From contig CP025011.1 of the NCBI GenBank assembly GCA_002952755.1, positions 720,001-752,000 on the forward strand: DNA of 32,000 nucleotides, given 5' to 3'. The DNA is from Candidatus Saccharimonadota bacterium (GTDB lineage: Bacteria; Patescibacteriota; Saccharimonadia; Saccharimonadales; UBA4665). The notes beneath the pieces are model-generated. The model did no database searches, was not told where the DNA came from, and worked only from the letters and a program-made list of their open reading frames with translations. Position 1 is the first letter of the stretch. Every line of letters starts with the position of its first letter. A program made the translations under genes and the position numbers. Positions 1 through 26,672 of the stretch are shown here, one piece after another.

Positions 1-107
1 CAGAGAGTAAACAAATTATTAAATTGCCCTCCAAAATCAATGCAGGGGAGCCAGTACTTGCCCGGCTGCGCGAAGTCGCTGGCGATACGAACATAAAGAT
101 CCAATAA
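1..107 (+). CDS. 3' end of an unidentified CDS (partial, runs off the window start)
   Basis: Reading frame starting at nt 3 is open from the window edge (...AGEPVLARLREVAGDTNIKIQ) to TAA at 105-107. Too short to assign a family. Confidence 0.3.
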   Translation, partial: ESKQIIKLPSKINAGEPVLARLREVAGDTNIKIQ

Positions 108-164
108 TAGGGCGTGCCTGGATAAGAGCCTGTCTACCCGCTAGTTGCTTTTGTGATTAGTTCC

Positions 165-269
165 GATCACCCTGCCTGCTGCCCCAAGGGGAGTCGCGCG
201 TAGCGCAACCAGACCGACGTAAGTCGGCCTGTGTGAAACGCTCCCCTTGGGGCAGCAGGCAGGGTGATC
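165..269 (-). repeat. Hairpin-apex element, family A, copy 1 (candidate structured 3'-UTR RNA)
   Basis: 29-bp perfect inverted repeat (165-193 GATCACCCTGCCTGCTGCCCCAAGGGGAG pairs with 241-269). It encloses a 47-nt core (194-240) whose reverse complement, CGTTTCACACAGGCCGACTTACGTCGGTCTGGTTGCGCTACGCGCGA, matches the cores at 4219-4266 and 13131-13177. Confidence 0.8.
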
Positions 270-274
270 ATCTA

Positions 275-814
275 TTAGTTGAGCAATCCGAGATGGTCGA
301 GTGCCAGAAACGCACCGGCGGTATCAGTCAGCTGACCAGCACGTACTTGGGTGATGAAATCGGCGAGATCGACCAGCTCTACTTCACCAAATTCTGCATC
401 ATCTAGCTGCGGTTCAGTAACTTTCTTGCAATTTTTTATGATGATGACACTACGATCCATTTGGGTATAGGCGTCACTCTCCCACGTGCCAATCCAATCT
501 TCGACATCGCCGGCGTAGCCCGTTTCTTCGAGTAATTCGCGGATCGCAGCGTCGCGTGGCGGTTCATTGGCGTTTACCTTGCCGCCGGGTAATTCACGAA
601 GAATAGTGTTTGGGCCGGGCCGGTACTGCGGGATAGTGATAACTTTGCTGTCGGTAGTAAGCGCGAACACGCAAGCGCCGGCGTCTTCAATGCGCAAGTA
701 GTAGTCGGCGATCGTACCATTCGGCAAGCGGTAGTCGCGACGCTCAATGGTTTGAGAATATTTGTGGTAAGCGATTTCGCGTTTTAGCTCTTGCCATGTC
801 TGCGTTTTGGCCAT
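275..814 (-). CDS. NUDIX hydrolase (ADP-ribose pyrophosphatase-like)
   Basis: Complete Nudix box GKVNANEPPRDAAIRELLEETGY (GX5EX7REUXEEXGU). Strong SD AAGGAGGG upstream of the ATG at 814. Confidence 0.9.
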   Translation of the reverse strand: MAKTQTWQELKREIAYHKYSQTIERRDYRLPNGTIADYYLRIEDAGACVFALTTDSKVITIPQYRPGPNTILRELPGGKVNANEPPRDAAIRELLEETGYAGDVEDWIGTWESDAYTQMDRSVIIIKNCKKVTEPQLDDAEFGEVELVDLADFITQVRAGQLTDTAGAFLALDHLGLLN

Positions 815-863
815 GAACGTACCCTCCTTGTTGAGACCTCATTGTAGCATCATGTTTGGACGG

Positions 864-1928
864 CTAGTAGATGAGTCCGGCAGAGCGGGATAAAACGGCG
901 CCGAGTAGGCCAATTGCCACGAGCACTATGTCGAGCAACTTATGCTTCATGATGAAGGCTTCGCCGCGAACCAGGGTTTTGTGCCAGAGTAATCCATGCC
1001 GCAAGAAGAAGATGGCGAGGCTGACGGTAGCAATTGTGCTGACAGCAAACATACTCCAAGGGGCATTGGCGCCCGAGAGTAGCTGGACGCGGGAAACATC
1101 CTTGCTGGCGACAGTTTTTGGCATACTATTAGCTGCCCCAGGCGTAGTCGTTGTGGTGTTGGTTTCGGGAGCTTTTTTAGCAGGGTTGTCGCTGCTAGCT
1201 GGCGGCGCGGCAGGGTTTGCGGCCGCACTGGGTGCGCTCTGAGCGGGAGCTGGTTGCGTGGCAGGCGTTACTGTTGGTTGATGCGCGGGTGGTGGGGCGT
1301 TAGAAGTCGCAGCTGCAACGCTGGGTTGCGGGCTGCCATATTCAGCAACGACAATTGTCTCCGGCCCGGTACCTTGGTAGTCAGGAGAATTAGCTACGCC
1401 AAAGCCGACATCTGTATACGTTGTATTGAGAATGTTGGCACGGTGCTCGGCGCTATTCATCCAAGCGGTAACCGTGGCATCGCTACTATCGAATCCGTAA
1501 GCTAGGTTTTCGCCTGCAGTCTGATAACTATAGCCAGCGGCGGTAAAGAAAGTCCAGGGCGTGGCGCCGTCGGGCGTGTTGTGCGCCCAGTAATCTCTTG
1601 CGACCATATCATTCGCTTTCGCCTGGGCTGCGCTGGCGAGCTGGTTATTCAGCGCGAGGCTGCCAAGACCATTGCTAGACCGCTGCGCGTTGGTAGTAGT
1701 AGCCAATTCAGCAATGCTCATATCAGTGGCGTAGCCGAGAACGCTTTTATGTATATTGCCCAAAAAGCTATTACAAAAAAGTCCGACGGCCACGATGGCA
1801 ATAATTGGAATATAGGGCCAATAGGTCTTCATATAGTGGTCGTTGCGCTGATGATGCTGACCGCTGCGCCGCTTGTTGTGCGGCGACTTGGTAGAGACTC
1901 GTTTTTTTGATTTTGCTGCAAGAGCCAT
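864..1928 (-). CDS. Membrane-anchored CAP/SCP/PR-1 (YkwD-like) domain protein with a P/A/T-rich linker
   Basis: CAP-domain motifs YWAHNTPDG, GENLAYGF and AWMNSAEHRANIL. Basic N-terminus plus a TM helix, a long Pro/Ala/Thr-rich region, and two C-terminal hydrophobic helices. Confidence 0.8.
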   Translation of the reverse strand: MALAAKSKKRVSTKSPHNKRRSGQHHQRNDHYMKTYWPYIPIIAIVAVGLFCNSFLGNIHKSVLGYATDMSIAELATTTNAQRSSNGLGSLALNNQLASAAQAKANDMVARDYWAHNTPDGATPWTFFTAAGYSYQTAGENLAYGFDSSDATVTAWMNSAEHRANILNTTYTDVGFGVANSPDYQGTGPETIVVAEYGSPQPSVAAATSNAPPPAHQPTVTPATQPAPAQSAPSAAANPAAPPASSDNPAKKAPETNTTTTTPGAANSMPKTVASKDVSRVQLLSGANAPWSMFAVSTIATVSLAIFFLRHGLLWHKTLVRGEAFIMKHKLLDIVLVAIGLLGAVLSRSAGLIY

Positions 1929-1951
1929 CTTAATAAAAGTGTAGCATACGC

Positions 1952-2446
1952 CTATGCAAAGCGGCAGTGATACAGCGCCATGGCGGCTGCTTGCACAACG
2001 TTATACGATTCTTTACGGCCGAACATTGGTATCTCAAGCGCCATGTCACAGGCTGCCAACACTTCCGGTTCGACACCCTCAACTTCGCGACCAACGAGCA
2101 GCACGATCTTTTCGGGTGGGTGATAGTTGGGCAGCGCCTTTGCATGGTCAGCTTGTTCAATAGCGGCAATCAGGTAACCATTCTTTTTGAGCTTAGCGAT
2201 AACCGGGAAGATATCGGCATGGTGTGTATTGGGGAGCATAGTTTCGGCGCCGAGGGCAGTTTTGTGGATCTGGCGGGTGATTTTGAGAGCCTCGTGTGGC
2301 AAGCGCCGGTCGTTATTGTGCAAAGGGTAGGGTGTATAGCCACTGAGGATAACTTGACTTACGCCTAAGCCTTCAGCGGTTCGAAGCAGAGAGCCGACGT
2401 TATGGCAGCTCCGCAAATTATGAGCAATGAGGATGATATCACGCAT
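1952..2446 (-). CDS. SpoU/TrmH-family RNA 2'-O-methyltransferase
   Basis: SPOUT motifs NVGSLLRTAEGLG, LLVGREVEGV and IPMFGRKESYNVVQAAAMALY. Confidence 0.85.
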   Translation of the reverse strand: MRDIILIAHNLRSCHNVGSLLRTAEGLGVSQVILSGYTPYPLHNNDRRLPHEALKITRQIHKTALGAETMLPNTHHADIFPVIAKLKKNGYLIAAIEQADHAKALPNYHPPEKIVLLVGREVEGVEPEVLAACDMALEIPMFGRKESYNVVQAAAMALYHCRFA

Positions 2447-2510
2447 ATTACTTATGATTTATTGTGCCCGAAACGCTCTAAAAGCACAAATACGGGCGCG
2501 CCTAAAGCGG

Positions 2511-2540
2511 TTGTGCTTGGTAGAGTCTCCGATATATACT
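2511..2540 (+). promoter_or_regulatory. Putative sigma70-type promoter of the PilB-like gene
   Basis: TTGTGC (2511-2516), 18-nt spacer, TATACT (2535-2540). Only 7 nt separate the -10 box from the ATG at 2548, and no SD is present. Confidence 0.45.
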
Positions 2541-2547
2541 GAAGAGC

Positions 2548-4149
2548 ATGAGCCAAGATGCCCGCCACGACGAAGAGATGGCGACCCAACGCCGGGCGCG
2601 TATTTTGGGTTTAAACTATGTCGATACCTCGGCTATGACTAATAAGCAGCTATTTAATGATTTGCTGCCTGCGTCTGAGTTGTACCAACTGCGAGTAATT
2701 CCGCTATCTGCCGATAAAAGCAACATACTATTTGGTATCACCAACACTACCTCACAACAAGTGGTGCGCCAACTGGAACAGCGCTTCAGCGATAGGCGTT
2801 TGGCGTTCGCGATTATCTCTGATGCTGGCTACCGTGACTACATGCATCTGTATGATCCGCCGAAACAGGTAGTTTACCAGGATATCAATATTGTTAATTC
2901 GGATGACGCACAGCTATTGCAAGTAATATCTTCTACGCTGGCCCAAGTGCGTGCCGACGACATGCTGGCATACCTCGTGCAACAGGCATATAAGCTCAAA
3001 GCGTCGGACATTCACTTAGAGAACCAAGAGCAGAATATCCGCGTGCGTTTACGTGTGGATGGTGTACTGCACACTATAGCTACCATTGAACGCGGTAAAT
3101 ACCATCAATTGATGTCGGCTATTGCTAGTGCTGCAAACGTGTCTACCGATTCGTCCGATGCCCAAACCGGCCATATCAATAACCACTACCGATTGGCTAC
3201 GGGCGAAGACGTTACAGTGAATTTGCGCGTCGAAACGGTCCCTACGGCATATGGCCAGGACGTTGTCATGCGGCTATTTAATCTCGAGCTCGAATATCTC
3301 AATCTGGACAAACTGGGCCTTAGCAAGCGCGAACGGGATGTGGTGGATGACGTCATCCGTCATCCAACCGGTATGGTGCTCATTGTCGGTCCAACGGGAT
3401 CGGGCAAAACAACCACGCTCTATTCCCTCATTAATACGCTTAATAGTGATGAGCGCAAAGTTATTACCCTGGAGGATCCAATTGAGTATTTCATCCACGG
3501 CGTGGTACAAATTCCCGTCCACGGTGACAACGATGCTTCTGGTTTTGCTGATAAATTACGCGCCGTGCTGCGTCTCGACCCTGATATCGTGATGGTAGGT
3601 GAGATTCGTGATCAAGACACTGCGCGTACGGCTTTGCAATCCGCACTCACCGGCCATTTGGTGCTCAGCACCTTTCACGCTTCATCTGCCGCGGCCGCTC
3701 TGACGCGCATGCTCGACTACATTGGCATGAATCCGCTCTTTGCTTCTGCTATGCATCTGGTGATGGCGCAGCGCCTGGTTCGCAAGCTGGACGACGCGAC
3801 CAAGCAGGCGTATCAACCGGATGCCGGCCTGAAAGCGCAGTTGCAGCAAGTGATAAACACGCTGCCCCAAGGCATCGAGCGGCCGAATCTCGATACGGTT
3901 ACGCTCTACAGACCAGGTAGCTCTCCGGAAGTTCCTTTTGGCTACCAGGGTCAGATCGCGATCCGCGAACAGCTTATGATGACCCAGGGCATTCAACAAT
4001 TACTGCGTCTACCTCCCAATCAAATTACAACCGACATGCTCCAAAAAAAGGCACAAGAAGACGGTATGCTCACTATGGTGCAGGACGGCCTTCTGAAAGC
4101 CATAGAAGGTCTTACTTCTTTGGAAGAAGTGTACCGCGTCGTTAGTTAA
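2548..4149 (+). CDS. pilB: Type IV pilus / type II secretion assembly ATPase (PilB/GspE family)
   Basis: Walker A GPTGSGKTTTLYS, Asp box VITLEDPIEY, Walker B DPDIVMVGEIRD, His box TGHLVLSTFHA. N-terminal T2SSE_N-like region (RARILGLNYVD). Confidence 0.9.
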   Translation: MSQDARHDEEMATQRRARILGLNYVDTSAMTNKQLFNDLLPASELYQLRVIPLSADKSNILFGITNTTSQQVVRQLEQRFSDRRLAFAIISDAGYRDYMHLYDPPKQVVYQDINIVNSDDAQLLQVISSTLAQVRADDMLAYLVQQAYKLKASDIHLENQEQNIRVRLRVDGVLHTIATIERGKYHQLMSAIASAANVSTDSSDAQTGHINNHYRLATGEDVTVNLRVETVPTAYGQDVVMRLFNLELEYLNLDKLGLSKRERDVVDDVIRHPTGMVLIVGPTGSGKTTTLYSLINTLNSDERKVITLEDPIEYFIHGVVQIPVHGDNDASGFADKLRAVLRLDPDIVMVGEIRDQDTARTALQSALTGHLVLSTFHASSAAAALTRMLDYIGMNPLFASAMHLVMAQRLVRKLDDATKQAYQPDAGLKAQLQQVINTLPQGIERPNLDTVTLYRPGSSPEVPFGYQGQIAIREQLMMTQGIQQLLRLPPNQITTDMLQKKAQEDGMLTMVQDGLLKAIEGLTSLEEVYRVVS

Positions 4150-4191
4150 ATCGCGTTCCAGTTCATCTGCCGGGGATTAACGTCAATCCAA

Positions 4192-4293
4192 GACATCTAC
4201 CGCACACTCCATATGGAGCGTTACATGCAGGTCGGCCAAAGGTCGGTCTGGTTGCACTACGCTTGACTCTATCTGGAGTGTGCGGTAGATGTC
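4192..4293 (+). repeat. Hairpin-apex element, family A, copy 2 (candidate structured 3'-UTR RNA)
   Basis: Arms 4192-4218 and 4267-4293: 27 positions with 25 Watson-Crick pairs, 1 G-U wobble and 1 mismatch; the outer 20 bp are perfect. Core 4219-4266 is CGTTACATGCAGGTCGGCCAAAGGTCGGTCTGGTTGCACTACGCTTGA. Confidence 0.8.
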
Positions 4294-4372
4294 GAAACTA
4301 TACTATTCCCTTATAGCAACAGATGTGTTATGCTTGTCCTAAAGCCAAAAATAGTGTAAGGTGTATTAATCT

Positions 4373-4891
4373 ATGCAATCTGTTATTCAAAAAGTTGAAG
4401 CGAAGTATAAGAAGTCGGCTGTCGTAAATGTCAAAAGCGGCGACACGGTAAAAGTGCACCAGAAAATCCGTGAAGGCAATAAAGAGCGTGTGCAGATTTT
4501 CCAGGGGATGGTTATTCGTTGCGACCGTAAGGATAGCCACACCAGCCGCATTACGGTACGTCGTATCGCTAGTGGTATTGGTGTAGAAAAGAGCTTTCTG
4601 TTGCACAGCCCGCTCGTCCTCAAAGTAGAGGTTACCAAGCGCAGCAAGGTGCGCCGCAACTATCTGACATACATGCGCAACCGTACTGGCAAATCTGCCC
4701 GCTTGACCGGCGTCGAGTTTGACCGCATGGCGGTTAACGCCATTGTTGATACCAAGGCCGAGGAAGAGGAAGTAAAACTCGCTGAGGAAAAAGCCGCTGC
4801 CGCTGAGGCTGAAGCTGCCAAGAAAGCTGCGGAAGAAGCTGTCAATGAGGCGAAAGTGCAAGAGGCACTGGCCAAGCACGACGAATCCTAA
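4373..4891 (+). CDS. rplS: 50S ribosomal protein L19 with an Ala/Glu/Lys-rich C-terminal extension
   Basis: L19 signature GDTVKVHQKIREGNKERVQIFQGMVI...RRIASGIGVEK. SD AAGGTG upstream. About 55 extra C-terminal residues (KAEEEEVKLAEEKAAAAEAEAAKKAAEE...). Confidence 0.95.
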   Translation: MQSVIQKVEAKYKKSAVVNVKSGDTVKVHQKIREGNKERVQIFQGMVIRCDRKDSHTSRITVRRIASGIGVEKSFLLHSPLVLKVEVTKRSKVRRNYLTYMRNRTGKSARLTGVEFDRMAVNAIVDTKAEEEEVKLAEEKAAAAEAEAAKKAAEEAVNEAKVQEALAKHDES

Positions 4892-4915
4892 GCTTCAGTT
4901 TATACAGATTATGAG

Positions 4916-4945
4916 GACCCGCCCACAAGCGGGTCTTTTACTTTT
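4916..4945 (+). terminator. Rho-independent terminator of rplS
   Basis: GACCCGC (4916-4922) pairs with GCGGGTC (4929-4935) around a 6-nt loop, followed by TTTTACTTTT. Confidence 0.75.
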
Positions 4946-5082
4946 CTCTCAGGTCGTATCATCGCCTCATTTATCCTAAATCTCCTCCATATCTCCGTCC
5001 CCGCAAATAGCGATCTTTATACGTCACTTTTTGTCCCGCAAAAAGTAACCAAAAACTCCCCAAGGCAAACGTAAAACACTAC

Positions 5083-5179
5083 TGGAAAATACCCCGCACA
5101 GCATCTTCGCTGCGGAACTCGCCCTTGATTGGGCTCAAACAGTCCTCGCTCGTGCAGATGCTGTGCGGGGTATTTTCCA
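5083..5179 (-). repeat. Hairpin-apex element, family B, copy 1
   Basis: 24-bp perfect arms (5083-5106 pair with 5156-5179). The 49-nt core reverse-complemented reads GCACGAGC-GAGGACTGTTTGAGCCC-AATCAA-GGGCGAGTTCCGCAG-CGA and matches the core at 5413-5469. Confidence 0.8.
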
Positions 5180-5393
5180 ATCGGTTTTACTCCAGGCCCC
5201 GAACCTCGTCGGGAATGGAGACGAGAAGGTAAGGTCTTTCAGTATATACGAAGAAGAGATACTTAAAATCTGGAGGTCCTTATTAAGTGCAAAATAGGAG
5301 CAGTCCTGGATGCAGCTACATACGTATTTACCAACCACCTTTCAATCACAGGATCGAATATCCGACTAGTTCGGCCGTAATGGAAAACCGATT
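5179..5393. other. Long imperfect hairpin bridging the two family B elements (candidate ncRNA domain)
   Basis: AATCGGTTTT (5179-5188) pairs with AAAACCGATT (5384-5393). GGCC[CC]GAAC (5195-5204) pairs with GTTCGGCC (5369-5376). Local hairpin CTCGTC/GACGAG at 5205-5225. No credible ORF. Confidence 0.5.
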
Positions 5394-5491
5394 AGCTACA
5401 GCAGCCAAATTAGCGGATAAAGCCGAGGACTGTTTAAGCCCTTGTAAAGGGCGAGTTCCGCAGGCTCGTTAATTTGGCTGCTGTAGCTAGT
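5391..5491 (+). repeat. Hairpin-apex element, family B, copy 2
   Basis: Arms 5393-5412 and 5470-5489 form 20 perfect bp, plus one G-U and one A-T pair outside them. Core 5413-5469 is GCGGATAAAGCC-GAGGACTGTTTAAGCCC-TTGTAAA-GGGCGAGTTCCGCAG-GCTCGT. Confidence 0.8.
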
Positions 5492-5619
5492 AGGCTTTTT
5501 CATTCCTAGGCCGAGAGGTTTTTCGGTTCCTTTTTTGTGGAAAAAAAGAACATTACAAGGATTGCAAATCGCGGGTGGGGATTTACTGAGGAATTATTGG
5601 AATACCTCACGGAGCTGCT

Positions 5620-6213
5620 ATGGAGAAAATACAGGCAGCCTGTGCTAGACTGAGCAATATGATCGTGGGGATGGATGAAGTAGGGAGAGGGTGTTGGGCT
5701 GGTCCGCTAGTAGCCGGGGCGGTGGTGCTTGGCGCCCCAATTGCCGGGCTCAAAGACTCCAAGAAACTCACCAAGTTACGCCGCGAGAAGCTGGACGTAG
5801 AAATCCGGTTGCAGGCGCTTGGTTTTGGCCTTGGCTGGGTGGGGCCGGCAGAGCTGGACAAGGTAGGACTCACCGAAGCGGTACGCTTGGCCATGGCTCG
5901 GGCTTTAGCAGATGTAGCCGTCCCGTATGAACGAATTATTATAGACGGCAATTATAATTTTTTTGCAGACAACCCCAAGAGTTCTTGCTTGGTAGGTGCT
6001 GATAATAGCGTACCAGAGGTGAGTGCGGCAAGTATTATCGCCAAAGTGGCGCGCGATCGCTACATGGCTGAAATCGCATCCCTGTTTCCCGGTTATGGCT
6101 TTGAAAAACATGTTGGCTACGGCACTGCAGCCCATAACGCCGCACTCAATGTGCTCGGTATCTGCGGCCAGCACCGCCGTAGTTTTAAGCCAATTCAAGC
6201 CTATGCAGTATGA
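5620..6213 (+). CDS. rnhB: Ribonuclease HII
   Basis: Catalytic motifs VGMDEVGRGCWAGPLVAGAVV, DSKKLT and SAASIIAKVARD. SD GGAG upstream. Confidence 0.9.
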   Translation: MEKIQAACARLSNMIVGMDEVGRGCWAGPLVAGAVVLGAPIAGLKDSKKLTKLRREKLDVEIRLQALGFGLGWVGPAELDKVGLTEAVRLAMARALADVAVPYERIIIDGNYNFFADNPKSSCLVGADNSVPEVSAASIIAKVARDRYMAEIASLFPGYGFEKHVGYGTAAHNAALNVLGICGQHRRSFKPIQAYAV

Positions 6214-6551
6214 CGGCCACAGATACCGGCCGTAAGGCTGAATCGGCGGCTGCAGATTTTCTTGTGGATAAAGAGTACCGTATTATTGAGCGCAATTGGC
6301 GGACGAGATGGTGCGAGATCGACATTGTTGCCAAGCGTAGGGGTGTTATCTACTTTTGTGAGGTGAAATATCGCGCTTCAAATAGGCAAGGACAGGGGTT
6401 TGACTACATAACTGCCAAAAAACTTTCCCAAATGCATTTTGCCGCCGAATATTGGGTCTACCAGCACGGGCACGATGGAGACTATGAGCTATGTGCTATT
6501 GAAGTAGCTGGTTCAGACTTTCAAATAACAGGTGCCGTTACAAATTTGTAG
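6210..6551 (+). CDS. yraN: YraN-family (UPF0102) endonuclease-like protein
   Basis: GRKAESAAADFL...IIERNWR...CEIDIVA...FCEVKYR matches UPF0102. The ATGA start/stop overlap with rnhB suggests translational coupling, and rnhB-yraN adjacency is common in bacteria. Confidence 0.85.
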   Translation: MTATDTGRKAESAAADFLVDKEYRIIERNWRTRWCEIDIVAKRRGVIYFCEVKYRASNRQGQGFDYITAKKLSQMHFAAEYWVYQHGHDGDYELCAIEVAGSDFQITGAVTNL

Positions 6552-9117
6552 AGATGTAGAACGCTTGGACGCTGGGGAGATCGCGCTCCAGCCAGGCGAT
6601 ACGCGTTTCCAACTCCTCGACACCCAAGGTAATATTGTGGGCCAAAGCTATCTGATCAGTCTTTGGCGCAAAGAAAGTCTGGTACTCTTCTAATAACTGG
6701 CGTGTATTAAAGGCGCTGGCCGCATAGCGCGGTAGATAGTCGTACGAGGAATCTTTGCTGAAGGTAGCCTCCAGCCATGGCCACTCCGACTGCATCCACT
6801 GCCAGGCCAGCATACGAGAGTAACGATTACGAAGCAAACTGACGAGCCAATGGTCGACATCCTGCTGGCGGACTTTGGTGCTATCTTGCAAGCGGCCGAG
6901 TAAAATAGTGGTCTCGTCTTCGCGTTGGGTAGCGGTGAGCGCAGTTAAAATGTCTTGCTTAAGATCAACGTTTTGCGTCGTTTCAATCAGATTGATCAAG
7001 TATTCGAAAGCTCCCTCGTGGTGATTACGCACCGCGCAACCGAAGACCACATCGCGTATTTCGGCAGGAACCGCTTGCGCATCTTTCTTATAGGCTTCAA
7101 AGAGGGTTAGAGCCTTAGCAGTGACGTCGGGATGCTCGGCATACACACCGAGGCCGATAATCGTGCCGCGTAGTTTTATATCTTGGCTGGATTCGTCTAT
7201 TTTTTGCTCCCATCCTAAGCGCTCATACTGTTTTTGGATGAGGGTGCGTATGGCTTGCTTTATTGGCGCTTCGAGTGACGTATCGCTGTCGATAAAACGT
7301 CTGCCTTCGCCCAAGATAACGCCCATCATGCCCCAAACGGGTTCGCTATCTTCGTCATTGTAGTGTGCGAGCAGTTTCAATGTGGCGTCATACGATTGCA
7401 GTCCAGCCCGGGAGAGCATCGAACTGTCATTGAGGAGCATTAGCCGCTCGCTTACTGCCAGCTGCTTATGCTGGGCGAGTTTCGCCAAAGCTTCTGCGTG
7501 GGCTGGTTCAGTGTAATGGACGATGTAGTGGCCAATCGCGCCCCGGTTAAAACGCACGGGCTCGGACGAAGCAAGCATGAAGGTCTTTTTTGCCTTGGTA
7601 AAGAGGTCGGGGACGGCGGGGAGATCTGCGAGCAAAGGAACCGGCCATAGGCGGCCTGTGTCGGCTTTGGACATATCGAGCAGGAAATGGTGTTGGGTAA
7701 CGCTAACCCGTCTGTCTTTTTGGGTTGCAGCTACAACCGGGAAGCCAGAACGCTCCAGCCAAGGTTCCATGAACCCAACGACATTCTTACCGCTGGCCGC
7801 ACTAAGTGCCTCCCATAGGTCCTTAGCGGTCGTATTGCCGTACGAATGGGTGGCAAAGTAGGTTTGCAGGCCTTTCCGGAAATCTTCGGTACCGAGGTAA
7901 CGAATGAGTGTATTGAGCAGCCTTCCGCCCTTCGCATAGACGATTGAAGGGTCGAATAAGCTGCTGATCTCATCAGGGTGATGAACAGCCGTATGCACTG
8001 CCTGCACTCCTGCAATGCTGTCGCGGCGCAGTGCTTGTAACCCTTCATCGATCACATAGCTGTCCCAAATATGCCACTCCGGGAAAAGCGCATCCATTGC
8101 CACGTAAGCCATAATATTGGCAAAACTTTCGTTGAGCCAGATTTCATCCCACCACTTCATCGTTACCAGATCGCCGAACCATTGGTGTGAAGCCTCATGT
8201 GCGACAACCTCGGCAATTACCTCGCGGGTGCTCTGTGCAGAGGTGTCGGGATCGGCAATAAGTACGGACTCGCGGTAGGTAAGTAGCCCCCAGTTTTCCA
8301 TGCCTCCAGCCGAAAAGTCGGGGATGGCAACATTGTCGCATTTGGCCAGCGGATATGGAGTATGGTAATAGTCTGCAAAGAACTCGATAGAACGCTTGGA
8401 AACGTCCAGCGCAAAGTCCAGCGCTTCAGGCCGATGAGCTTTGGTCGCCCACACGCGCACGTTAACGCCGCTATTCGTTTTCGTCTCACGCGACTGCAGC
8501 TCGCCGATCACAAAGCCCAGCAAGTAGGTCGACATTTTGGGGGTCGTTTCAAAGGTAGTTACCATCTTGCCGTCTTTTTCGCTCTGGTTGAGTGCGGGCA
8601 TATTGCTTAAGACTACTTCATCTTTAGGGCCAGTGAGCGTTAGTGTGAAGGTCGCTTTGGCTTCCGGTTCGTCTATGCAAGGGAAGGCGCGGCGGGCATA
8701 ATGACTTTCGAATTGGGTCGATAGCAAGCGATATGTTTGCTCGCCTACTCTATAGTCTGAAGAGTAAATGCCGTTCATACCATCGCTGATGGTGGCCTCA
8801 AACTCCATGACAACCGTATATTGGCCCGCATGCAACAAGGTATCGCTATGCAGACGAACTTCTTCTAAGGTCTGTTGATGGTTGATGCGACTAATAGTAA
8901 TTTGTTGCTCGCCCTTTTTATCATGCTTGGTTACGCTTGCGCTGATTACTTTTACACCGTGCTGATGAAACGTCAGGCGTTGGCTGGGGCGCCCCTTCCT
9001 GAGCCCGGTAATGGTGACGTTGCCACGCACTGTACGGGTTTCTTTATCAGGGTCAAGGAATAATTGGTAGGATGTGGGCTGAAAGCCCTCGAATAGGCGT
9101 CTGACATTTTTACTCAT
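6538..9117 (-). CDS. pepN: M1-family aminopeptidase N
   Basis: GGMENWG (GAMEN-type exopeptidase motif) and HEASHQWFGDLVTMKWWDEIWLNESFA (HEXXH-X18-E). 859 aa. The 3' end overlaps yraN by 14 nt (convergent genes). Confidence 0.9.
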   Translation of the reverse strand: MSKNVRRLFEGFQPTSYQLFLDPDKETRTVRGNVTITGLRKGRPSQRLTFHQHGVKVISASVTKHDKKGEQQITISRINHQQTLEEVRLHSDTLLHAGQYTVVMEFEATISDGMNGIYSSDYRVGEQTYRLLSTQFESHYARRAFPCIDEPEAKATFTLTLTGPKDEVVLSNMPALNQSEKDGKMVTTFETTPKMSTYLLGFVIGELQSRETKTNSGVNVRVWATKAHRPEALDFALDVSKRSIEFFADYYHTPYPLAKCDNVAIPDFSAGGMENWGLLTYRESVLIADPDTSAQSTREVIAEVVAHEASHQWFGDLVTMKWWDEIWLNESFANIMAYVAMDALFPEWHIWDSYVIDEGLQALRRDSIAGVQAVHTAVHHPDEISSLFDPSIVYAKGGRLLNTLIRYLGTEDFRKGLQTYFATHSYGNTTAKDLWEALSAASGKNVVGFMEPWLERSGFPVVAATQKDRRVSVTQHHFLLDMSKADTGRLWPVPLLADLPAVPDLFTKAKKTFMLASSEPVRFNRGAIGHYIVHYTEPAHAEALAKLAQHKQLAVSERLMLLNDSSMLSRAGLQSYDATLKLLAHYNDEDSEPVWGMMGVILGEGRRFIDSDTSLEAPIKQAIRTLIQKQYERLGWEQKIDESSQDIKLRGTIIGLGVYAEHPDVTAKALTLFEAYKKDAQAVPAEIRDVVFGCAVRNHHEGAFEYLINLIETTQNVDLKQDILTALTATQREDETTILLGRLQDSTKVRQQDVDHWLVSLLRNRYSRMLAWQWMQSEWPWLEATFSKDSSYDYLPRYAASAFNTRQLLEEYQTFFAPKTDQIALAHNITLGVEELETRIAWLERDLPSVQAFYISTNL

Positions 9118-9123
9118 AGCATT

Positions 9124-9132
9124 ATTCTAACA
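9124..9132 (-). promoter_or_regulatory. Extended -10 box (TGtTAGAAT) of pepN
   Basis: The reverse complement of 9124-9132 reads TGTTAGAAT. Only 6 nt lie between the hexamer and the ATG at 9117, and no SD is present. Confidence 0.5.
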
Positions 9133-9157
9133 GATGAAATACTGTCTTTCACCCAGC

Positions 9158-9186
9158 TTGACGGCGTGTAACACGCTTGATATACT
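9158..9186 (+). promoter_or_regulatory. Sigma70-type promoter of nusA
   Basis: TTGACG (9158-9163), 17-nt spacer, TGaTATACT (TG at 9178-9179, hexamer at 9181-9186). Confidence 0.65.
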
Positions 9187-9197
9187 ACAAGAGATTG

Positions 9198-9221
9198 GTC
9201 GGCCGGCAGGTCGACTTTTTT
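9198..9221 (+). terminator. Leader terminator/attenuator upstream of nusA
   Basis: GTCGGCC (9198-9204), GGCA loop, GGTCGAC (9209-9215) form a 7-bp stem followed by TTTTTT (9216-9221). It lies between the promoter and the SD/ATG (9241-9257). Confidence 0.55.
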
Positions 9222-9254
9222 CGTATACGCACCCTAAACAGAAAGGAAACAACG

Positions 9255-10460
9255 ATGGATTTCGACTTTAAACAACTTGCTGCTGCTATCAAAGCGATTT
9301 CAGAAGAGAAGAATTTGCCCGAAGACACCGTGAAAGAGGTAGTTGAACAGGCATTAGCGGCCGCTTATCGCCGTGATTATGGCGAGCGCGAACAGGAAGT
9401 GCGCGTAACCATGAACCTAAACACCGGTGACGTTGATGCTTACGTTATGAAAGAGGTGGTCGAGGAGGTCGAGAACGCCGCCTACGAGTTGAGCCTGTCG
9501 CAGGCCCTAACGATGCAAAAAGACGCCAAGATTGGCGACCTAGTGGAAGTGCACGAAAAAGTGAACGACTTTGGCCGGGTAGCTGCCCAAACTGCCAAGC
9601 AAGTCATCTTGCAGCGCCTGCGCGAAGCTGAGCGCGAGATTGTTATGGGCGAATACGAAGATAAAATCGGTACCGTTATTAATGCGTTAGTTGCCCGTGT
9701 CGAAGGCAATATTGTACGCGTGGACCTAGGTAAGGCACAAGGCATAATGCCGCGCAGCGAGCAGATCCAGGGGGAGCGTTACTATCCCGGACAGCGCCTG
9801 AAAGCCTATCTCAAAGACGTAGAGCGTGGAGTGCGCGGGCCGCAATTGATCGTCTCACGTGGCTGCACTCAGTTTATTGAGTGGCTATTCCGTGCCGAAG
9901 TCCCGGAAATGGATAGCGGCGCTGTAGAGATTAAAGGCATTGCCCGCGAAGCTGGGGTGCGCACTAAGCTGGCAGTGAACAGCACCGTGCAGGGTGTGGA
10001 CCCAGTCGGTACCTTTGTGGGCGGCCACGGTACCCGTGTAAATGCTGTGATGAGCGAAGTGGGCGAGCAGGAAAAGATCGACATTATTGTCTGGAGCGAC
10101 GATGCCGTCGAGTACATTACTAACGCCCTTAGCCCTACAAAGGTCACCAAAGTACAAATTGACGAGGCCAACAAGAAGGCCCGTGTTGTTGTCCCAGAGG
10201 ATCAATTGAGTATTGCCATCGGCCGTGGCGGCCAAAATGTTCGCTTGGCAAGCAAGCTTACCGGTTATGAGCTGGACATTGAAGCTGAGCAAGCACCAAA
10301 ACCAGTGATCGCTCCGCCTGCCGCTAAACACGAACAAACATCACAGGCGCCGAAGCCTGCGGCTGCAGCTCCTGCCAAGCCGGCTGGTCCAATTAAGCTT
10401 AAAAAGAAGAGTGATCTCGAAAATAGCCTGCTTGAAGCTATTGAAGAGCATGGTGAATAG
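9255..10460 (+). CDS. nusA: Transcription termination/antitermination factor NusA with a Pro/Ala-rich C-terminal tail
   Basis: NusA N-terminal domain (LAAAIKAISEEKNLPEDTV...), S1 domain (GTVINALVARVEGNIVRVDLG) and two KH domains (GVDPVGTFVGGHGTRVNAV; SIAIGRGGQNVRLASKLTGYELDI). Start moved to the ATG at 9255, preceded by AAAGGAAA. The track start at 9177 lies inside the promoter. Confidence 0.92.
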   Translation: MDFDFKQLAAAIKAISEEKNLPEDTVKEVVEQALAAAYRRDYGEREQEVRVTMNLNTGDVDAYVMKEVVEEVENAAYELSLSQALTMQKDAKIGDLVEVHEKVNDFGRVAAQTAKQVILQRLREAEREIVMGEYEDKIGTVINALVARVEGNIVRVDLGKAQGIMPRSEQIQGERYYPGQRLKAYLKDVERGVRGPQLIVSRGCTQFIEWLFRAEVPEMDSGAVEIKGIAREAGVRTKLAVNSTVQGVDPVGTFVGGHGTRVNAVMSEVGEQEKIDIIVWSDDAVEYITNALSPTKVTKVQIDEANKKARVVVPEDQLSIAIGRGGQNVRLASKLTGYELDIEAEQAPKPVIAPPAAKHEQTSQAPKPAAAAPAKPAGPIKLKKKSDLENSLLEAIEEHGE

Positions 10461-10493
10461 TTATTAGCTTTTATTAGCCGCTAAAAGAGCTGA

Positions 10494-10519
10494 AAAACGT
10501 CGCAGTCTGGCGGCGTTTT
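10494..10519 (+). terminator. Hairpin terminator after nusA
   Basis: AAAACGTCGC (10494-10503) pairs with GCGGCGTTTT (10510-10519) around a 6-nt loop. The U run is short. Confidence 0.5.
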
Positions 10520-10539
10520 CCAGTATTTGTATCTGACGG

Positions 10540-10566
10540 TTAGCACTCTTGACGCGTGAGTGCTAA
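10540..10566. promoter_or_regulatory. CIRCE operator (HrcA binding site) overlapping the clpC promoter
   Basis: TTAGCACTC-TTGACGCGT-GAGTGCTAA is a perfect match to the CIRCE consensus TTAGCACTC-N9-GAGTGCTAA. The spacer contains a TTGACG -35-like hexamer (10549-10554). Confidence 0.85.
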
Positions 10567-10569
10567 TTC

Positions 10570-13080
10570 ATGTATCATACCTATATGACACCAAGCAGCG
10601 CCGATTTCCAGGACTTTTTGAATCATCTTACGAACAATGCATTAGAAAGCCTTAAACATGCCGATGCTATTGCGCGCAGTTTTGGCAGTGCGTATGTGGG
10701 TACTGAGCATTTGCTGCTAGGTATTCTCGCCCAAGAGACTAGCATGGGCGCTAAAATCTTGGAAGGCGCGGGGGTAACACTGGAGCGGGCGCGTATTGCT
10801 CTTAATCTTACACCCAAGACGGTAGCGCTGAACGCTGGCGCCAAAGGGTTGAGCGAGACTGCCAAACTAACCCTCAAAATGGCCTACGACGCCGCACAGG
10901 AATACAATCAGGAATACTGCGGCACCGAGCATATTCTGGAAGCTCTGCTGAGCCAGAAGAACGCTCGTGCCACTTCGCTGCTTCGGGCTATGAATGTTGA
11001 TGTGAGCAGCCTCATGAGCGAGCTGGAACAGTTTCTTAACCGCCAGCAGTACGAGGACGAAGATGGCAACACTGCCGAAACTGACGCTCCCCGCCGCTCT
11101 GGTGGCCGCAATAAAGGTCGCAAAACTGCGCTCGACTTCTTTGGTACCGACATGACTGCCGAAGCCCGCGCTGGCAAACTCGATCCTGTTGTGGGTCGCG
11201 AAGCCCAAATCCGTCGGGTTATCACCATTCTCAATCGACGCACCAAGAATAACCCGGTGCTCATTGGCGAGCCTGGCGTCGGTAAAACGGCAATTGCCGA
11301 AGGTCTGGCGCAGCGCATTGTGGCCGAAGATGTGCCTGATAGCTTACTCGATAAGCGTATCATTATGCTCGATCTGGCAGGGATGATTGCCGGTACTAAG
11401 TACCGCGGCGAATTTGAAGAACGCCTCAAAAAAGTCATGGCCGAACTGGAGAGTGATAAAAAAACTATCGTCTTTATTGATGAATTGCACCTCATTGTTG
11501 GTGCCGGCGCGGCCGAAGGTGCTATGGATGCTGGCAATATCCTAAAACCAGCGTTAGCCCGTGGCAGAATTCAATTAATCGGCGCAACGACAACCACTGA
11601 ATACACCAAGCATATCGAAAAGGATGCAGCTTTGGAGCGCCGTTTTCAGCCCGTTCAGGTGCCCGAAACCACTGTGCCCGAAACGCTAGCAATTTTAAAG
11701 GGCCTGCGTAAACACTACGAGGCTTTTCATGGTGTGACCGTCAGCGACGAAGTGCTTGATGATATTACCACGCTTGCCAAACGGTATATTAATGACCGTT
11801 TTATGCCAGATAAAGCTATCGACTTGCTCGACGAGACAGCTGCCCATCTGCGCGTTGACCAGGGTAAGACTTCGCCCGAAGTACGCAAGCTACAAAAAGA
11901 GCTCAAATTACTCAATACGCGTATCGACGAAGCGGTCGATAACGAAGATTACCAGAAAGCAGCCGAATACAAGACCCGCGCTTCACAAATGAACGAGGAG
12001 CTGAACAAGATGCAAGCTTCCGGCAAAAAAGATAAGCGCATCGTAGTTAGCAGTGAGGACGTTGCGGAGGTTGTTGCCCGCATTACGGGCGTTCCAGTTA
12101 AAAAGGTGATTCGCTCAGAGGCAAAACATTTGTTGCAGCTCGAAAAAACGCTTGGCAAGCACGTTATTGGCCAGCAAGAGGCTGTCGAAGCCGTGGCGCG
12201 TGCAGTACGCCGCAATCGCTCCGGTATCAGTAGTGCGCAGCGCCCCATTGGTTCGTTTATCTTCTTAGGGCCTACCGGTGTAGGCAAAACTGAGTTGGCT
12301 CGCGTACTGGCTCGCGAATTTTTTGGCAGCGAAGACGCGCTCGTAAAGATCGATATGAGCGAATTTGGCGAGCATCATAACGTTGCTCGCCTGGTGGGTG
12401 CTCCAGCTGGCTATGTGGGGTACGATGATGGCGGCCAGCTAACCGACAAGATCCGCCGCCGCCCTTATAGTTTGGTGTTATTCGACGAGATTGAAAAAGC
12501 CCACCCCGACACCTTCAACATGTTACTCCAAATTTTGGAAGATGGTGCGCTGACGGACGCTAAAGGCCGCAAGATCGATTTTACGAACACAATCGTGATC
12601 ATGACCAGCAACATTGGTGCTGAAAAGCTGCAAAAAGAGTCCAGTTTTGGTTTTCACGCCACGCGGTCTAGTGATATCAAGGATCTTGATGAGCTGCACG
12701 CCAGGAATCGCGACAAAGTTATGGATGATCTGAAGAAAAAGATGCGTCCTGAGTTTTTGAACCGTATCGACAAGGTGATTGTCTTCCGTGCACTTACCAA
12801 GAAAGACATTTACCGTATTATTGACCTGCAGATCAATGAGCTGAGTGAGCGCCTGCGTAAGCAAGGACTAGGGCTGCAATTAACGAATGGCGCTAAGCAG
12901 TATTTGCTTGATAAAGGCTACGACGCCCACAATGGTGTTCGTCCTATGCGCCGTCTCATCCAGGATGAACTTGAAGATCATATCTCCACTAATTTACTCA
13001 GCGATAGCTATCAGACGGGCGATATCCTAAGCGTTGGTGTCAAAAAAGATCAGCTTACCTATACGACGATCCACGAATAG
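10570..13080 (+). CDS. clpC: ATP-dependent Clp protease ATP-binding subunit ClpC
   Basis: Two Clp_N repeats (GTEHLLLGIL, GTEHILEALL). Two AAA+ modules (GEPGVGKTAIAEGLA, GPTGVGKTELARVLA). Short UVR-like middle domain (DYQKAAEYKTRASQMNEEL). The real start may be the second ATG at 10585. Confidence 0.92.
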   Translation: MYHTYMTPSSADFQDFLNHLTNNALESLKHADAIARSFGSAYVGTEHLLLGILAQETSMGAKILEGAGVTLERARIALNLTPKTVALNAGAKGLSETAKLTLKMAYDAAQEYNQEYCGTEHILEALLSQKNARATSLLRAMNVDVSSLMSELEQFLNRQQYEDEDGNTAETDAPRRSGGRNKGRKTALDFFGTDMTAEARAGKLDPVVGREAQIRRVITILNRRTKNNPVLIGEPGVGKTAIAEGLAQRIVAEDVPDSLLDKRIIMLDLAGMIAGTKYRGEFEERLKKVMAELESDKKTIVFIDELHLIVGAGAAEGAMDAGNILKPALARGRIQLIGATTTTEYTKHIEKDAALERRFQPVQVPETTVPETLAILKGLRKHYEAFHGVTVSDEVLDDITTLAKRYINDRFMPDKAIDLLDETAAHLRVDQGKTSPEVRKLQKELKLLNTRIDEAVDNEDYQKAAEYKTRASQMNEELNKMQASGKKDKRIVVSSEDVAEVVARITGVPVKKVIRSEAKHLLQLEKTLGKHVIGQQEAVEAVARAVRRNRSGISSAQRPIGSFIFLGPTGVGKTELARVLAREFFGSEDALVKIDMSEFGEHHNVARLVGAPAGYVGYDDGGQLTDKIRRRPYSLVLFDEIEKAHPDTFNMLLQILEDGALTDAKGRKIDFTNTIVIMTSNIGAEKLQKESSFGFHATRSSDIKDLDELHARNRDKVMDDLKKKMRPEFLNRIDKVIVFRALTKKDIYRIIDLQINELSERLRKQGLGLQLTNGAKQYLLDKGYDAHNGVRPMRRLIQDELEDHISTNLLSDSYQTGDILSVGVKKDQLTYTTIHE

Positions 13081-13103
13081 CATCTCCTTGTTGTGTGGCG
13101 TAC

Positions 13104-13204
13104 GGCACTGGCATGCCCATGCAAGTAGAGCGTTTCACGCAGGCCGACTAAAGTCGGTCTGGTTGCACTACGCCTGACTCTACTTACAGGAGCATATGGG
13201 TGCC
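13104..13204 (+). repeat. Hairpin-apex element, family A, copy 3 (eroded arms)
   Basis: Core 13131-13177 is CGTTTCACGCAGGCCGACTAAAGTCGGTCTGGTTGCACTACGCCTGA. The flanking arms give about 18 pairs, interrupted by one mismatch and two 8-nt bulges. Confidence 0.7.
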
Positions 13205-13280
13205 ACGGTGTCTATTTGACATCATCTAAAACGGCGTGCTAGCTACGTCTTGGGGACGTCATAGTATATGATAGAAGCAT

Positions 13281-14264
13281 ATGAGGTTAGTGCGACGATT
13301 TTGGCCGTATGTCTTGTTTATCTTAATTGTTGCGGCTGGTGTTTTTCTGTTATTTGGACATGAGCAATTGTTCGACTGGATCGCAGAGCGTAACTATCAT
13401 CCAACCGCCGTGGTTCAACAGCTGACAGCAGATACGACGATGACACCGCAGGCAAAGCATCTGTTTTATGTGAACCGGCCGGTTATAGAAAACAAAGATG
13501 GTTTCAACAAGCACTGTACCAACGGCTCAGACCAAGTGTCGACTCTGGGCTGTTTTACCGGTAATCGTTTAGGTATCTACGTCTATAATGTCACCGACCC
13601 GCGCCTGGCGGGCGTACAACAGGTAACCGCTGCGCACGAGATGTTGCACCAGGCGTATGAGCGCCTTAGCCAAGCTGAAAGGACACGTATAGACGCACTC
13701 CTGCAGCACTATTACACTAGTGGGTTGACCGACCAGACCATTAGAGATCAACTACAGACATACGTTACGACCGAGCCAGGCCAGTTGACGAACGAGATGC
13801 ACTCCATCTTAGGAACAGAAGTAACTGCCTTGCCACCAGAACTTGAAACATATTACGCACGCTACTTTAATGATCGAGCCAGGGTGGCTCGGTATTATCA
13901 GCAATATCAATCAGCCTTTAACCAGCGTAACCAGCAAATTAAGGACTATGATACGCAGCTTGATAGTTTAAAAATGCAGATTGACGCCAACCGAAAAGAC
14001 TTAAGTAGCCGCCAGGCGGTCCTTCTTGGCCAACGCAATCAGCTTGACGCCTATAAGAGCAGTGGGCGGATTATCGATTATAACAATCTAGTACCAAGCT
14101 ACAATGATCTGGTGAACGCCTACCGCGGTGAAATTGACGAGACAAACAATCTCATTAATCAATACAACCAGATGCTTGGCGAGCGTAACGCGATTGCTGT
14201 GCAGGAACGTCAGTTGCAATCAGATCTCGACAGCCACGTGGTGACCAGCGCGCCAACCCAGTAG
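13281..14264 (+). CDS. Membrane-anchored hypothetical protein with an HExxH zincin-like motif and a Q/N-rich coiled-coil tail
   Basis: N-terminal TM helix (WPYVLFILIVAAGVFLLF), AAHEMLHQAY motif, and a C-terminal heptad-like Q/N/D-rich region. No family recognised. Confidence 0.6.
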   Translation: MRLVRRFWPYVLFILIVAAGVFLLFGHEQLFDWIAERNYHPTAVVQQLTADTTMTPQAKHLFYVNRPVIENKDGFNKHCTNGSDQVSTLGCFTGNRLGIYVYNVTDPRLAGVQQVTAAHEMLHQAYERLSQAERTRIDALLQHYYTSGLTDQTIRDQLQTYVTTEPGQLTNEMHSILGTEVTALPPELETYYARYFNDRARVARYYQQYQSAFNQRNQQIKDYDTQLDSLKMQIDANRKDLSSRQAVLLGQRNQLDAYKSSGRIIDYNNLVPSYNDLVNAYRGEIDETNNLINQYNQMLGERNAIAVQERQLQSDLDSHVVTSAPTQ

Positions 14265-17184: not shown

Positions 17185-17186
17185 AT

Positions 17187-17234
17187 AAGAGGAGCTTTAG
17201 GTAGTTGAGTGAAGGATTGTCCTAAGCTCCTCTT
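17187..17234. terminator. Hairpin without a U tract between convergent genes (possible bidirectional terminator)
   Basis: AAGAGGAGCTTTAGG (17187-17201) pairs with CCTAAGCTCCTCTT (17221-17234), giving 14 bp with a 1-nt bulge and a 19-nt loop. No flanking T run. Confidence 0.4.
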
Positions 17235-17244
17235 GCGGGTTGTG

Positions 17245-26484: not shown

Positions 26485-26568
26485 GCGCGAGTGGTGAAAT
26501 GGTAGACACGCTAGTTTTAGGAGCTAGTGCCGTAAGGCGTGGAGGTTCAAGTCCTCTCTCGCGCACCA
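26485..26568 (+). tRNA. tRNA-Leu (anticodon UAG), class II, CCA encoded
   Basis: Hand-folded. Acceptor GCGCGAG/CTCGCGC. D arm GTG/CAC with GG in the loop. Anticodon stem CTAGT/GCTAG with loop TT-TAG-GA. Long variable arm TGCCGTAAGGCGT. T arm GGAGG-TTCAAGT-CCTCT. Discriminator A followed by CCA. Confidence 0.95.
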
Positions 26569-26672
26569 ACATCTGATTCAAGATATAAAAGCTCCCGCAT
26601 AGGGAACGCTTTTTTATTTGATTAGAATTTCTAATCAGTTGCGTGTATTCAAGCTCTCTTAATTGCGATTAT

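Follow-up and report, generated by a model that had tools for sequence, protein, structure and literature searches.

Hairpin repeats with a shared apex and locus-specific arms behind genes of a Saccharibacterium

A 32,000-nucleotide stretch of the genome of a Candidatus Saccharimonadota bacterium (assembly GCA_002952755.1, contig CP025011.1, positions 720,001-752,000 of the forward strand) contains three copies of a hairpin repeat that we call family A. We refer to the whole of this stretch as the window, and all positions are given in its numbering. Each copy consists of a core of 47-48 nt, recognizably the same in all three, at the tip of a long stem whose outer arms are unrelated from copy to copy, and each lies directly behind the stop codon of a gene. 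Family A is a real and unusual repeat family that falls outside the catalogued classes; its nearest kind are the small extragenic palindromic repeats. The explanation that we favor, and hold tentatively, is that a small apex module is copied between sites, that the outer stem is made from the local DNA, probably by fold-back, and that the resulting hairpin sits in the position of a terminator and is transcribed with the upstream gene. The DNA of this genome that we examined comes to ~44 kb of ~1.45 Mb (~3%), and the three copies lie within that share. The host belongs to Saccharibacteria/TM7 (Saccharimonadales), and the ClpC homologues that carry source names are mostly labeled Saccharimonadales, Saccharibacteria or Patescibacteria.

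Three hairpins share an apical core

The positions and orientations that an earlier note on the window had given for the three copies are correct (Table 1), as is its estimate of a total length near 100 nt, with units of 105, 102 and 101 nt for copies 1, 2 and 3. All three fold more stably than shuffled sequences (z = -12.1, -8.2 and -3.4, respectively). R1, a covariance model made from the three copies, returned them at 86-93 bits when run on the window, and the next best hit, at 24 bits, was the opposite strand of the same loci.

The sequence of copy 1 was recovered identically in three independent short-read assemblies (L060, L061 and L062), and parts of copies 2 and 3 are likewise present in independent assemblies; the independent Logan short-read contigs of this genome are all 100% identical to the window. 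The strain is present in samples SRR34954208-10 and SRR9952756/64. Because the copies recur in independent assemblies, the family A elements are not assembly artefacts. Hairpin elements do systematically fragment the short-read assemblies of this genome. Two independent assemblies (L060 and L070) stop at exactly position 4269, three bases into the 3' arm of copy 2 and thus at the junction of core and arm, and one Logan contig (L052) stops at 13153, within the core of copy 3. Of two further Logan contigs, one has its end at the outer edge of copy 1 (165) and the other begins at 5511, just past a unit of a second hairpin family, family B, which is described below (unit 2). The breaks at 4269 fit the presence of more genomic copies that share at least 30 nt of core and then differ in their arms, as the behavior of the assemblies would suggest.

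With copy 1 reverse-complemented, the aligned core reads CGTTTCAC-R-CAGGCCGAC-loop-GTCGGTCTG-GTTGC-R-CTACGC-NN-GA over 47-48 nt and is closed by GAG...CTC. The cores had been described as nearly identical, which overstates their similarity: pairwise identity is 75%, 85% and 88%, and 12 of 48 columns vary. An invariant 21-mer, GTCGGTCTGGTTGCRCTACGC, lies in the 3' half of the core and occurs three times in the window, versus no occurrence in 100 shuffles. The clustering of the invariant columns is not significant (P about 0.12 after correction). The variable columns are unsaturated, with three different bases in just one of the 12, and by our own binomial estimate saturation is rejected at about P = 0.02.

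Within the core stands an inner hairpin of 9 bp, with one conserved irregular pair and an overall length of 22-23 nt, whose loops (TTAC, CAAAG and TAAA) are those first reported. Also as reported, one G.U pair of the inner stem is common to all copies and copy 2 has extra wobbles, two in number; no C.A is found. These G.U pairs arise from C>T and A>G changes in the 5' strand of the stem, and they pair on the sense strand. For the core as a whole, RNAalifold prefers an alternative pairing of GCGU with ACGC and of CA with UG over the internal loop proposed in the earlier note, a choice between models that three sequences cannot decide.

The outer arms are specific to each locus

The outer arms of the three copies are mutually unrelated, whether they are compared by anchored identity (P = 0.24) or by Smith-Waterman alignment against shuffles (P = 0.46-0.97). 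Their outer ends read GATCACC/GGTGATC, GACATCT/AGATGTC and GGCACTG/GGGTGCC. Arm identity is 73% over the 5 bp nearest the core and 47-60% over base pairs 6-10, and beyond these it is at background, so that conservation reaches ~10 bp into the arms. The statement that the arms differ completely at each locus thus holds for the outer ~17-19 bp, the only locus-specific part, and fails for the partly conserved inner ~10 bp. The overall plan of a conserved apex on locus-specific arms, which is the reverse of that of a transposon-like repeat or insertion sequence, is borne out, and no known family matches it.

Pairing in the arms follows a series from 29/29 in copy 1 through 26/27 in copy 2 to 22/27 in copy 3; the first two counts agree with earlier ones, and the third replaces a figure of about 18 interrupted pairs. 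Not one of the 29 pairs of copy 1 is a G.U. In copy 3, the transitions comprise three C.A oppositions, which would be G.U on the other strand, versus two G.U pairs, and there is no bias toward the sense strand. This loss of pairs without a sense-strand preference points to the neutral decay of a once-perfect inverted repeat, not to a constraint on RNA pairing. The claim that wobbles pair only on the strand reading CGTTTCAC accordingly stands for the inner stem and for the arm of copy 2, but not for the arms of copy 3. The idea of large-scale covariation, in which pairing is kept while sequence is free, is a poor fit, given that copy 1 has no G.U, that copy 3 decays without bias, and that the core is unsaturated while the arms are random.

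Given outer arms without any relationship and cores that are 75-88% identical and unsaturated, descent of the arms from common ancestral arms is unlikely, which suggests that the arms had independent origins and did not diverge from common arms under a pairing constraint. Arm length is near-constant within each family (29, 27 and 27 in family A; 33, 32 and 35 in family B), which suggests that arm formation follows a ruler and is not the capture of hairpins of arbitrary size.

These properties bear on whether family A could be an ordinary MITE (miniature inverted-repeat transposable element), or a palindromic repeat resembling a REPIN (a hairpin-forming pair of repetitive extragenic palindromes, or REPs), that has subfamilies and whose same-arm copies lie in the other 97% of the genome. 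We consider this improbable. If it were so, the terminal repeats should be transposase sites and hence the most conserved part of the element, but the arms are mutually unrelated in three of three family A copies and in three of three family B units, and the assemblies break at the junction of core and arm, not outside the arms. A 7-bp direct repeat, AACTAAT, does stand on both sides of copy 1 (P about 0.02 in one of three tests) and could be a target-site duplication around the whole unit; the flanks of copies 2 and 3 lack such a duplication, their longest shared strings being just 3 and 5 nt (P = 1.0 and 0.31). Also consistent with an ordinary MITE are the small share of the genome covered and the fact that the same intergenic regions of relatives hold clearly MITE-like elements whose terminal inverted repeats are long and conserved.

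Gene context and a possible role as RNA

The genes of the window are ordinary core genes (dnaE, NUDIX, CAP-domain, SpoU, T2SSE/PilB, rplS, rnhB, yraN, pepN, nusA, clpC, radA, PBP, tyrS, recG and hisS), and the nusA-clpC-radA neighborhood is syntenic in relatives. Copy 1 lies between the convergent genes dnaE (stop 105-107) and NUDIX (stop 275-277), 5 nt from the NUDIX stop and 3' of both genes. Copy 2 starts 42 nt past the stop of the pilB-like T2SSE gene and ends 80 nt before rplS, and copy 3 starts 23 nt past the clpC stop. All three distances are as first given, and all three copies are co-oriented with the gene that ends upstream. That family A is always found 3' of a co-oriented gene is therefore true of every copy, but there are only three, and copy 1 is 3' of the convergent dnaE as well.

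No T tract follows the 3' arm of any copy, again as reported; the sequences there are GGAACTAATC, GAAACTATAC and ACGGTGTCTA. A terminator scan found canonical terminators, with stems of 7-12 bp and a T tract, at four other places in the window (Table 1) and none behind NUDIX, pilB or clpC, where the family A element occupies that position. An intrinsic terminator is rejected as an identity for the elements on these same two grounds, the missing U tract and the outcome of the scan at the three loci. The sense strand folds better than the antisense strand in each copy (-91.2 versus -88.1, -61.3 versus -51.8 and -50.4 versus -48.7 kcal/mol for copies 1, 2 and 3). Position and orientation fit co-transcription of the element as the 3' end of the upstream gene, which we presume because all three copies are co-oriented, the sense strand folds better and the inner stem has its wobbles on that strand.

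Table 1. Positions of hairpin elements and canonical terminators in the window
Feature	Positions	Strand	Description
Family A copy 1	165..269	minus	arms 165-193 and 241-269, 29/29 Watson-Crick; 47-nt core 194-240
Family A copy 2	4192..4293	plus	arms 4192-4218 and 4267-4293, 25 Watson-Crick, 1 G.U and 1 U.C; 48-nt core 4219-4266
Inner apical hairpin, copy 2	4230..4250	plus	CAGGTCGGC-loop-GTCGGTCTG; 3' strand invariant across copies
Family A copy 3	13104..13204	plus	arms 13104-13130 and 13178-13204, 20 Watson-Crick, 2 G.U, 3 C.A and 2 other; 47-nt core 13131-13177
Family B unit 1	5074..5188	plus	unrelated core CTGCGGAACTC-small hairpin-TCAAACAGTCCTCG; arms about 33 nt, unique to unit 1
Family B unit 2	5384..5498	minus	core 87.5% identical to unit 1; arms unrelated to those of unit 1
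Canonical terminator, rplS	4913-4938		7-12-bp stem and T tract
Canonical terminator, nusA	about 10494-10520		7-12-bp stem and T tract
Canonical terminator, tRNA	about 26586-26615		7-12-bp stem and T tract
Canonical terminator, fourth	27989-28020		7-12-bp stem and T tract

The earlier note had gone further and read family A as a selected RNA of the 3' untranslated region (3'-UTR): the ~100-nt rod would be a functional transcript end, its apex kept by purifying selection, for instance as a protein site, and its stem by compensatory change. We think this possible but doubtful. It accounts for the placement of all three copies 5-42 nt behind a stop codon in co-orientation, for upstream genes without a canonical terminator, for the better folding of the sense strand, for the three inner-stem wobbles that are all on that strand, for the invariance of the 21-mer in the 3' half of the core, and for the constant total length. 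It would also account for family B, in which homologous frames from different genera keep a paired stem of wholly different sequence. The arms of family A themselves behave otherwise, with copy 1 perfectly Watson-Crick and copy 3 having five non-pairing positions and transitions without sense bias, and a stem evolving by compensation is hard to square with core columns that are unsaturated while the arms are random. The invariant core columns do not cluster significantly, and no homologue was found in related genomes or metagenomes, which would be odd for selection that freezes a 21-mer. Binding of a protein to the internal loop and cleavage of the arms by RNase III would be conjectures within such a model.

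Searches in related genomes and databases

The Rfam and covariance-model checks that the earlier note had called for place the elements in no Rfam family and yield only the three known copies in the window and none in relatives. At the gathering score, the only Rfam 15 match in the window is a tRNA at 26485-26565, and at E<=5 nothing matches in positions 1-14000, which cover all three family A copies; the relatives are also without a match. No copy turned up when R1 was applied, filters off, to ~84 kb of syntenic sequence of relatives whose ClpC is 86-91% identical, versus three in 44 kb of this genome.

Scans for the core as an exact motif, in which diverged homologues could be missed, gave 0 matches in IMG/VR (17 specified bases), 2 chance matches in JGI metagenomes (20 specified bases) and 51 matches in 185,579 GTDB species genomes, one per species. 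The 51 are all isolated and in coding regions, are close to the number expected by chance and have no hairpin context. Open reading frames of the core, queried against 5.8 billion proteins for spurious reading frames across other copies, gave no candidates. In the literature, we found no description of hairpin repeats with a conserved apex and unique arms. Family A appears to be restricted to this lineage. The spacer downstream of clpC ranges from 15 to 574 nt among relatives, with differing elements inside.

The arms were searched for as well. Used as blastn-short queries, they had no match in any of 50,697 phage genomes, and none beyond themselves in the 97 kb searched from this lineage. Against IMG/VR, 18-mers from the arms gave one chance-level match each, of which one does not extend (18 nt, L065) and the other reaches 20 nt: positions 2-21 of the copy 1 arm (ATCACCCTGCCTGCTGCCCC) match exactly positions 4021-4040 of a viral contig (L064; IMG/VR UViG_3300002516_000012). 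One or two 18-mer matches are expected by chance, and we judge the 20-nt match to be coincidental.

These results bear on a more speculative idea, that the apex is a programmable scaffold presenting a variable duplex of ~18-20 bp as a guide or memory, for instance against phage or host, after RNase III-type processing. Two families in which a variable duplex of constant length is held in a conserved frame would suit such a device, as would a duplex length similar to that of spacers or small-RNA duplexes. Arms that match nothing beyond chance in the lineage, in phage genomes or in IMG/VR do not suit it, nor do the decaying arms of copy 3, and no cas-like or other effector gene lies near the elements in the window. 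We regard the scaffold as very improbable. A CRISPR-like or other guide-bearing element is not what is seen here, with neither arm matches beyond chance nor cas-like genes.

Family B and other hairpins of the lineage

Family B, found in a repeat scan of the window, has an apex of 49-51 nt and arms of about 32-33 nt. Its two units in the window lie in opposite orientation in the 728-nt spacer between rplS and rnhB (4892-5619), which is non-coding and structured (fold z = -10) and has no Rfam match. The 728-nt element that they form part of also has diverged outer inverted repeats (5023-5060 versus about 5510-5550) with the motif ACTTTTTGTCCCGCAAAAAGTAACCAAAAACTC, and a middle of ~195 nt. Downstream of clpC, one relative (L055) carries the outer motif and a family B unit, a second (L056) carries a variant with another apex, and a third (L066) has a homologous frame with a plain hairpin with a 5-nt loop at the place where the window has arms and core. 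Since homologous modules sit downstream of clpC in these three, the 728-nt element is mobile or rearranging.

In an alignment of the homologous frames (A3), the flanks and the family B core align, and the arms are completely different in every frame. The whole family B unit is present in three homologous frames and missing from the equivalent frame of L066, and family B recurs in a related genus with arms that are again different. A conserved tip on unique arms of ~30 bp, with a total of ~100-115 nt, is thus a recurring architecture in this lineage, and long hairpin elements are common in the intergenic regions of these genomes.

A plain hairpin in a frame that elsewhere holds a complete unit raises the question of whether the elements enter existing hairpins. 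If a module of ~55-67 nt were inserted into the apical loop of hairpins that already stood at gene 3' ends, the outer arms would be the old stems, and both the position behind genes and the lack of a target duplication would be explained. The frame of L066 that is homologous to family B unit 1 has just such a plain hairpin, and the window has, between convergent genes at 17186-17235, one long empty hairpin that lacks a T tract. The old stems would all have to be 17-19 bp in family A, or about 22-25 bp in family B, whereas terminators here have T-tailed stems of 7-12 bp and no T tract stands behind any of the three family A arms. The L066 hairpin has other arms than the family B unit of the window, and a single empty candidate was seen in 44 kb. 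We therefore consider insertion into loops unlikely.

The hairpin at 17186-17235 has arms of about 15 bp and a 19-nt apex, and the convergent genes around it end at 17184 and 17245. No other empty I-shaped hairpin was seen in the window, and this one may exemplify the family A architecture before occupation, or its substrate.

In relatives, very long imperfect hairpins lie upstream of clpC (L056 9792-9970 and L068 2766-2897), with arms of 50-63 nt and an apex of 32-53 nt that includes a small inner hairpin. The plan of an apex on long arms appears to be widespread in the intergenic DNA of Saccharimonadales.

A model for the origin of family A

The explanation that we favor treats family A as a lineage-restricted, non-autonomous repeat of which only the apex is copied between sites. 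The copied module, about 55-67 nt long, would comprise the 47-nt core with no more than ~10 bp of the stem that closes it, and would fold as a hairpin in single-stranded DNA. Its 3' end, paired at the foot of the hairpin, could then be extended along the adjoining flank by fold-back (snap-back) DNA synthesis, which would add an inverted copy of roughly 18 nt of target and make a palindrome that is perfect at birth. Thereafter, the arms would either be kept perfect by quasi-palindrome template-switch correction or decay neutrally. Insertion would be tolerated only in the gene-free DNA behind stop codons, so that a ~100-nt hairpin comes to occupy the position of a terminator and would be transcribed as the 3'-terminal hairpin of the upstream mRNA. 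There, it might act as a barrier to read-through, as a barrier to 3' exonucleases, or as a site for RNase III. The architecture, the series of arm decay, the restriction to this lineage and the position behind genes are what we observe; from these we infer mobility, the fold-back step, transcription and any role as RNA.

Several points weigh against this explanation. The ~3% of the genome that we examined shows just three copies, and the window is free of genes for a transposase, an HUH nuclease or a reverse transcriptase. We know of no bacterial element with a regular inverted target duplication. The cores have diverged by 12-25%, so the copies are not very young, and the perfect arms of copy 1 then need either recency or active homogenization. 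The relatives are too diverged for filled and empty sites to be compared: ClpC identity is only 91% to the next one, whose intergenic DNA is not alignable. The AACTAAT repeat around copy 1, if real, implies that the whole unit, including its arms, was inserted. That the 3' half of the core is invariant, and that the inner stem wobbles only on the sense strand, gives a hint of selection on RNA. Finally, because old family B frames have replaced their stems entirely with pairing kept, structure-constrained evolution or self-correction of palindromes does operate in this lineage.

A broader version of our explanation would hold that families A and B, with a family C in relatives, represent a new kind of mobile element, a hairpin module of ~50-65 nt that has no conserved ends and makes a fixed-length inverted duplication of its target. 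We consider this generalization rather unlikely.

Comparison with known elements

In the way it works, family A comes closest to extragenic hairpin repeats of the REP or MITE type and to gene-specific 3' stem-loops. Like the REP and REPIN sequences mobilized by RAYT proteins, family A consists of short multi-copy extragenic hairpins of the kind often found behind genes, and its inner hairpin is the size of a REP. REPs behind genes can stabilize the upstream mRNA. In REPs, however, the stems are conserved and the loop or spacer varies, whereas family A shows the reverse. The sole GTAG of family A is on the antisense strand within GCGTAGTGCAACC, 6 nt from the foot of the stem and not abutting it. 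With no GTAG/CGTC at the stem foot of a conserved palindrome, and with long stems that are not conserved, an assignment to REP/REPIN was rejected.

The likeness to MITEs such as Correia, ERIC, RUP and Nezha lies in a length of ~100 nt, a non-coding intergenic nature, long hairpins, restriction to a lineage and the breaking of short-read assemblies. In MITEs, the terminal inverted repeats are conserved, the middle varies or is arbitrary, and the target site is directly duplicated; in family A, the termini are unrelated, the middle is conserved and duplication is not consistent. Judged by terminal repeats, family A is not a MITE, since its outer arms are unrelated between copies.

Small conserved sequences within hairpins whose flanks are site-specific, with nested hairpins and no obvious target duplication, are known from insertions into hairpin loops; conceptually, these and the small dispersed repeats of cyanobacteria are the nearest relatives. 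IS1397 and ISKpn1 insert into the loops of REPs, and ISPpu9 targets REPs. The small dispersed repeats SDR4-6 of Nostoc, reportedly described by Elhai et al. in 2008, are also of this kind. IS1397 and ISKpn1 are full insertion sequences of >1 kb, however, and SDR4-6 are cyanobacterial units of 21-27 nt; there is no sequence similarity to family A, and arms of near-constant length are undescribed in those systems.

At the RNA level, the stem-loops at the 3' ends of chloroplast mRNAs and the I-shaped terminators of actinobacteria resemble family A in that a locus-specific stem, with no U tract behind it, comes right behind the coding region and is presumed to act in forming or protecting 3' ends. 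They differ in sharing no 47-nt apex and in having stems much shorter than 27-29 bp. At the DNA level, quasi-palindrome template switching and snap-back inverted duplication resemble our model in that DNA synthesis makes or perfects inverted repeats around a seed hairpin; Ripley-type mutations and the tandem inversion duplications of Salmonella are examples. These are known as sporadic mutations, not as the regular mode of insertion of dispersed repeats.

Other candidates were also rejected. An integron attC site does not fit, with no R''/R' boxes (RYYYAAC ... GTTRRRY), a conserved center and core genes as neighbors. Ribozymes, K-turns, group II domain V and tRNA-derived short interspersed elements were dropped, their motifs being absent and Rfam silent.

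Known dispersed repeats (REP, MITE, ERIC and Correia) are defined by conserved ends or stems, so family A is a misfit to the model in which a transposase binds the ends. If target DNA does supply its arms, a new chemistry of insertion would be at work, and with it a natural source of long perfect palindromes and double-stranded RNA at gene ends. A fixed-length inverted duplication, if real, would place such palindromes, with their potential for double-stranded RNA or cruciforms, behind genes in a reduced genome of the Candidate Phyla Radiation (CPR). If the arms instead covary under selection, Saccharibacteria would have in family A a new 3'-UTR RNA module present in multiple copies; to our knowledge, almost no RNA regulation has been described for this phylum. 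On either reading, the elements break short-read CPR assemblies at defined points.

Further features of the window and its relatives

Directly after clpC, three relatives carry MITE-like elements of 300-500 nt (L066 5558-6050, L056 12573-13014 and L055 12594-12888). L066 has terminal inverted repeats of 134 nt (85% identity), and L056 has ones of 32 nt (94%). A 10-mer at the clpC end in L066, CCGCGAATAG, is found a second time about 85 nt downstream, on the border of the element, and may have been left as a target duplication when another insertion nested there.

Just upstream of clpC in the window, at 10539-10567, stands a perfect CIRCE operator (controlling inverted repeat of chaperone expression), TTAGCACTC-N9-GAGTGCTAA. 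A near-CIRCE with one base changed per half, CTAGCACTC-N9-GAGTGCTAG, lies upstream of clpP in L057 (5706-5740). These operator sequences suggest that HrcA may control Clp genes in this Saccharibacterium.

Two further spacers of the window, 27723-28108 (386 nt) upstream of a WhiB-domain gene and 29102-29454 (353 nt) upstream of hisS, match no T-box or other Rfam family at E<=1, and both fold strongly.

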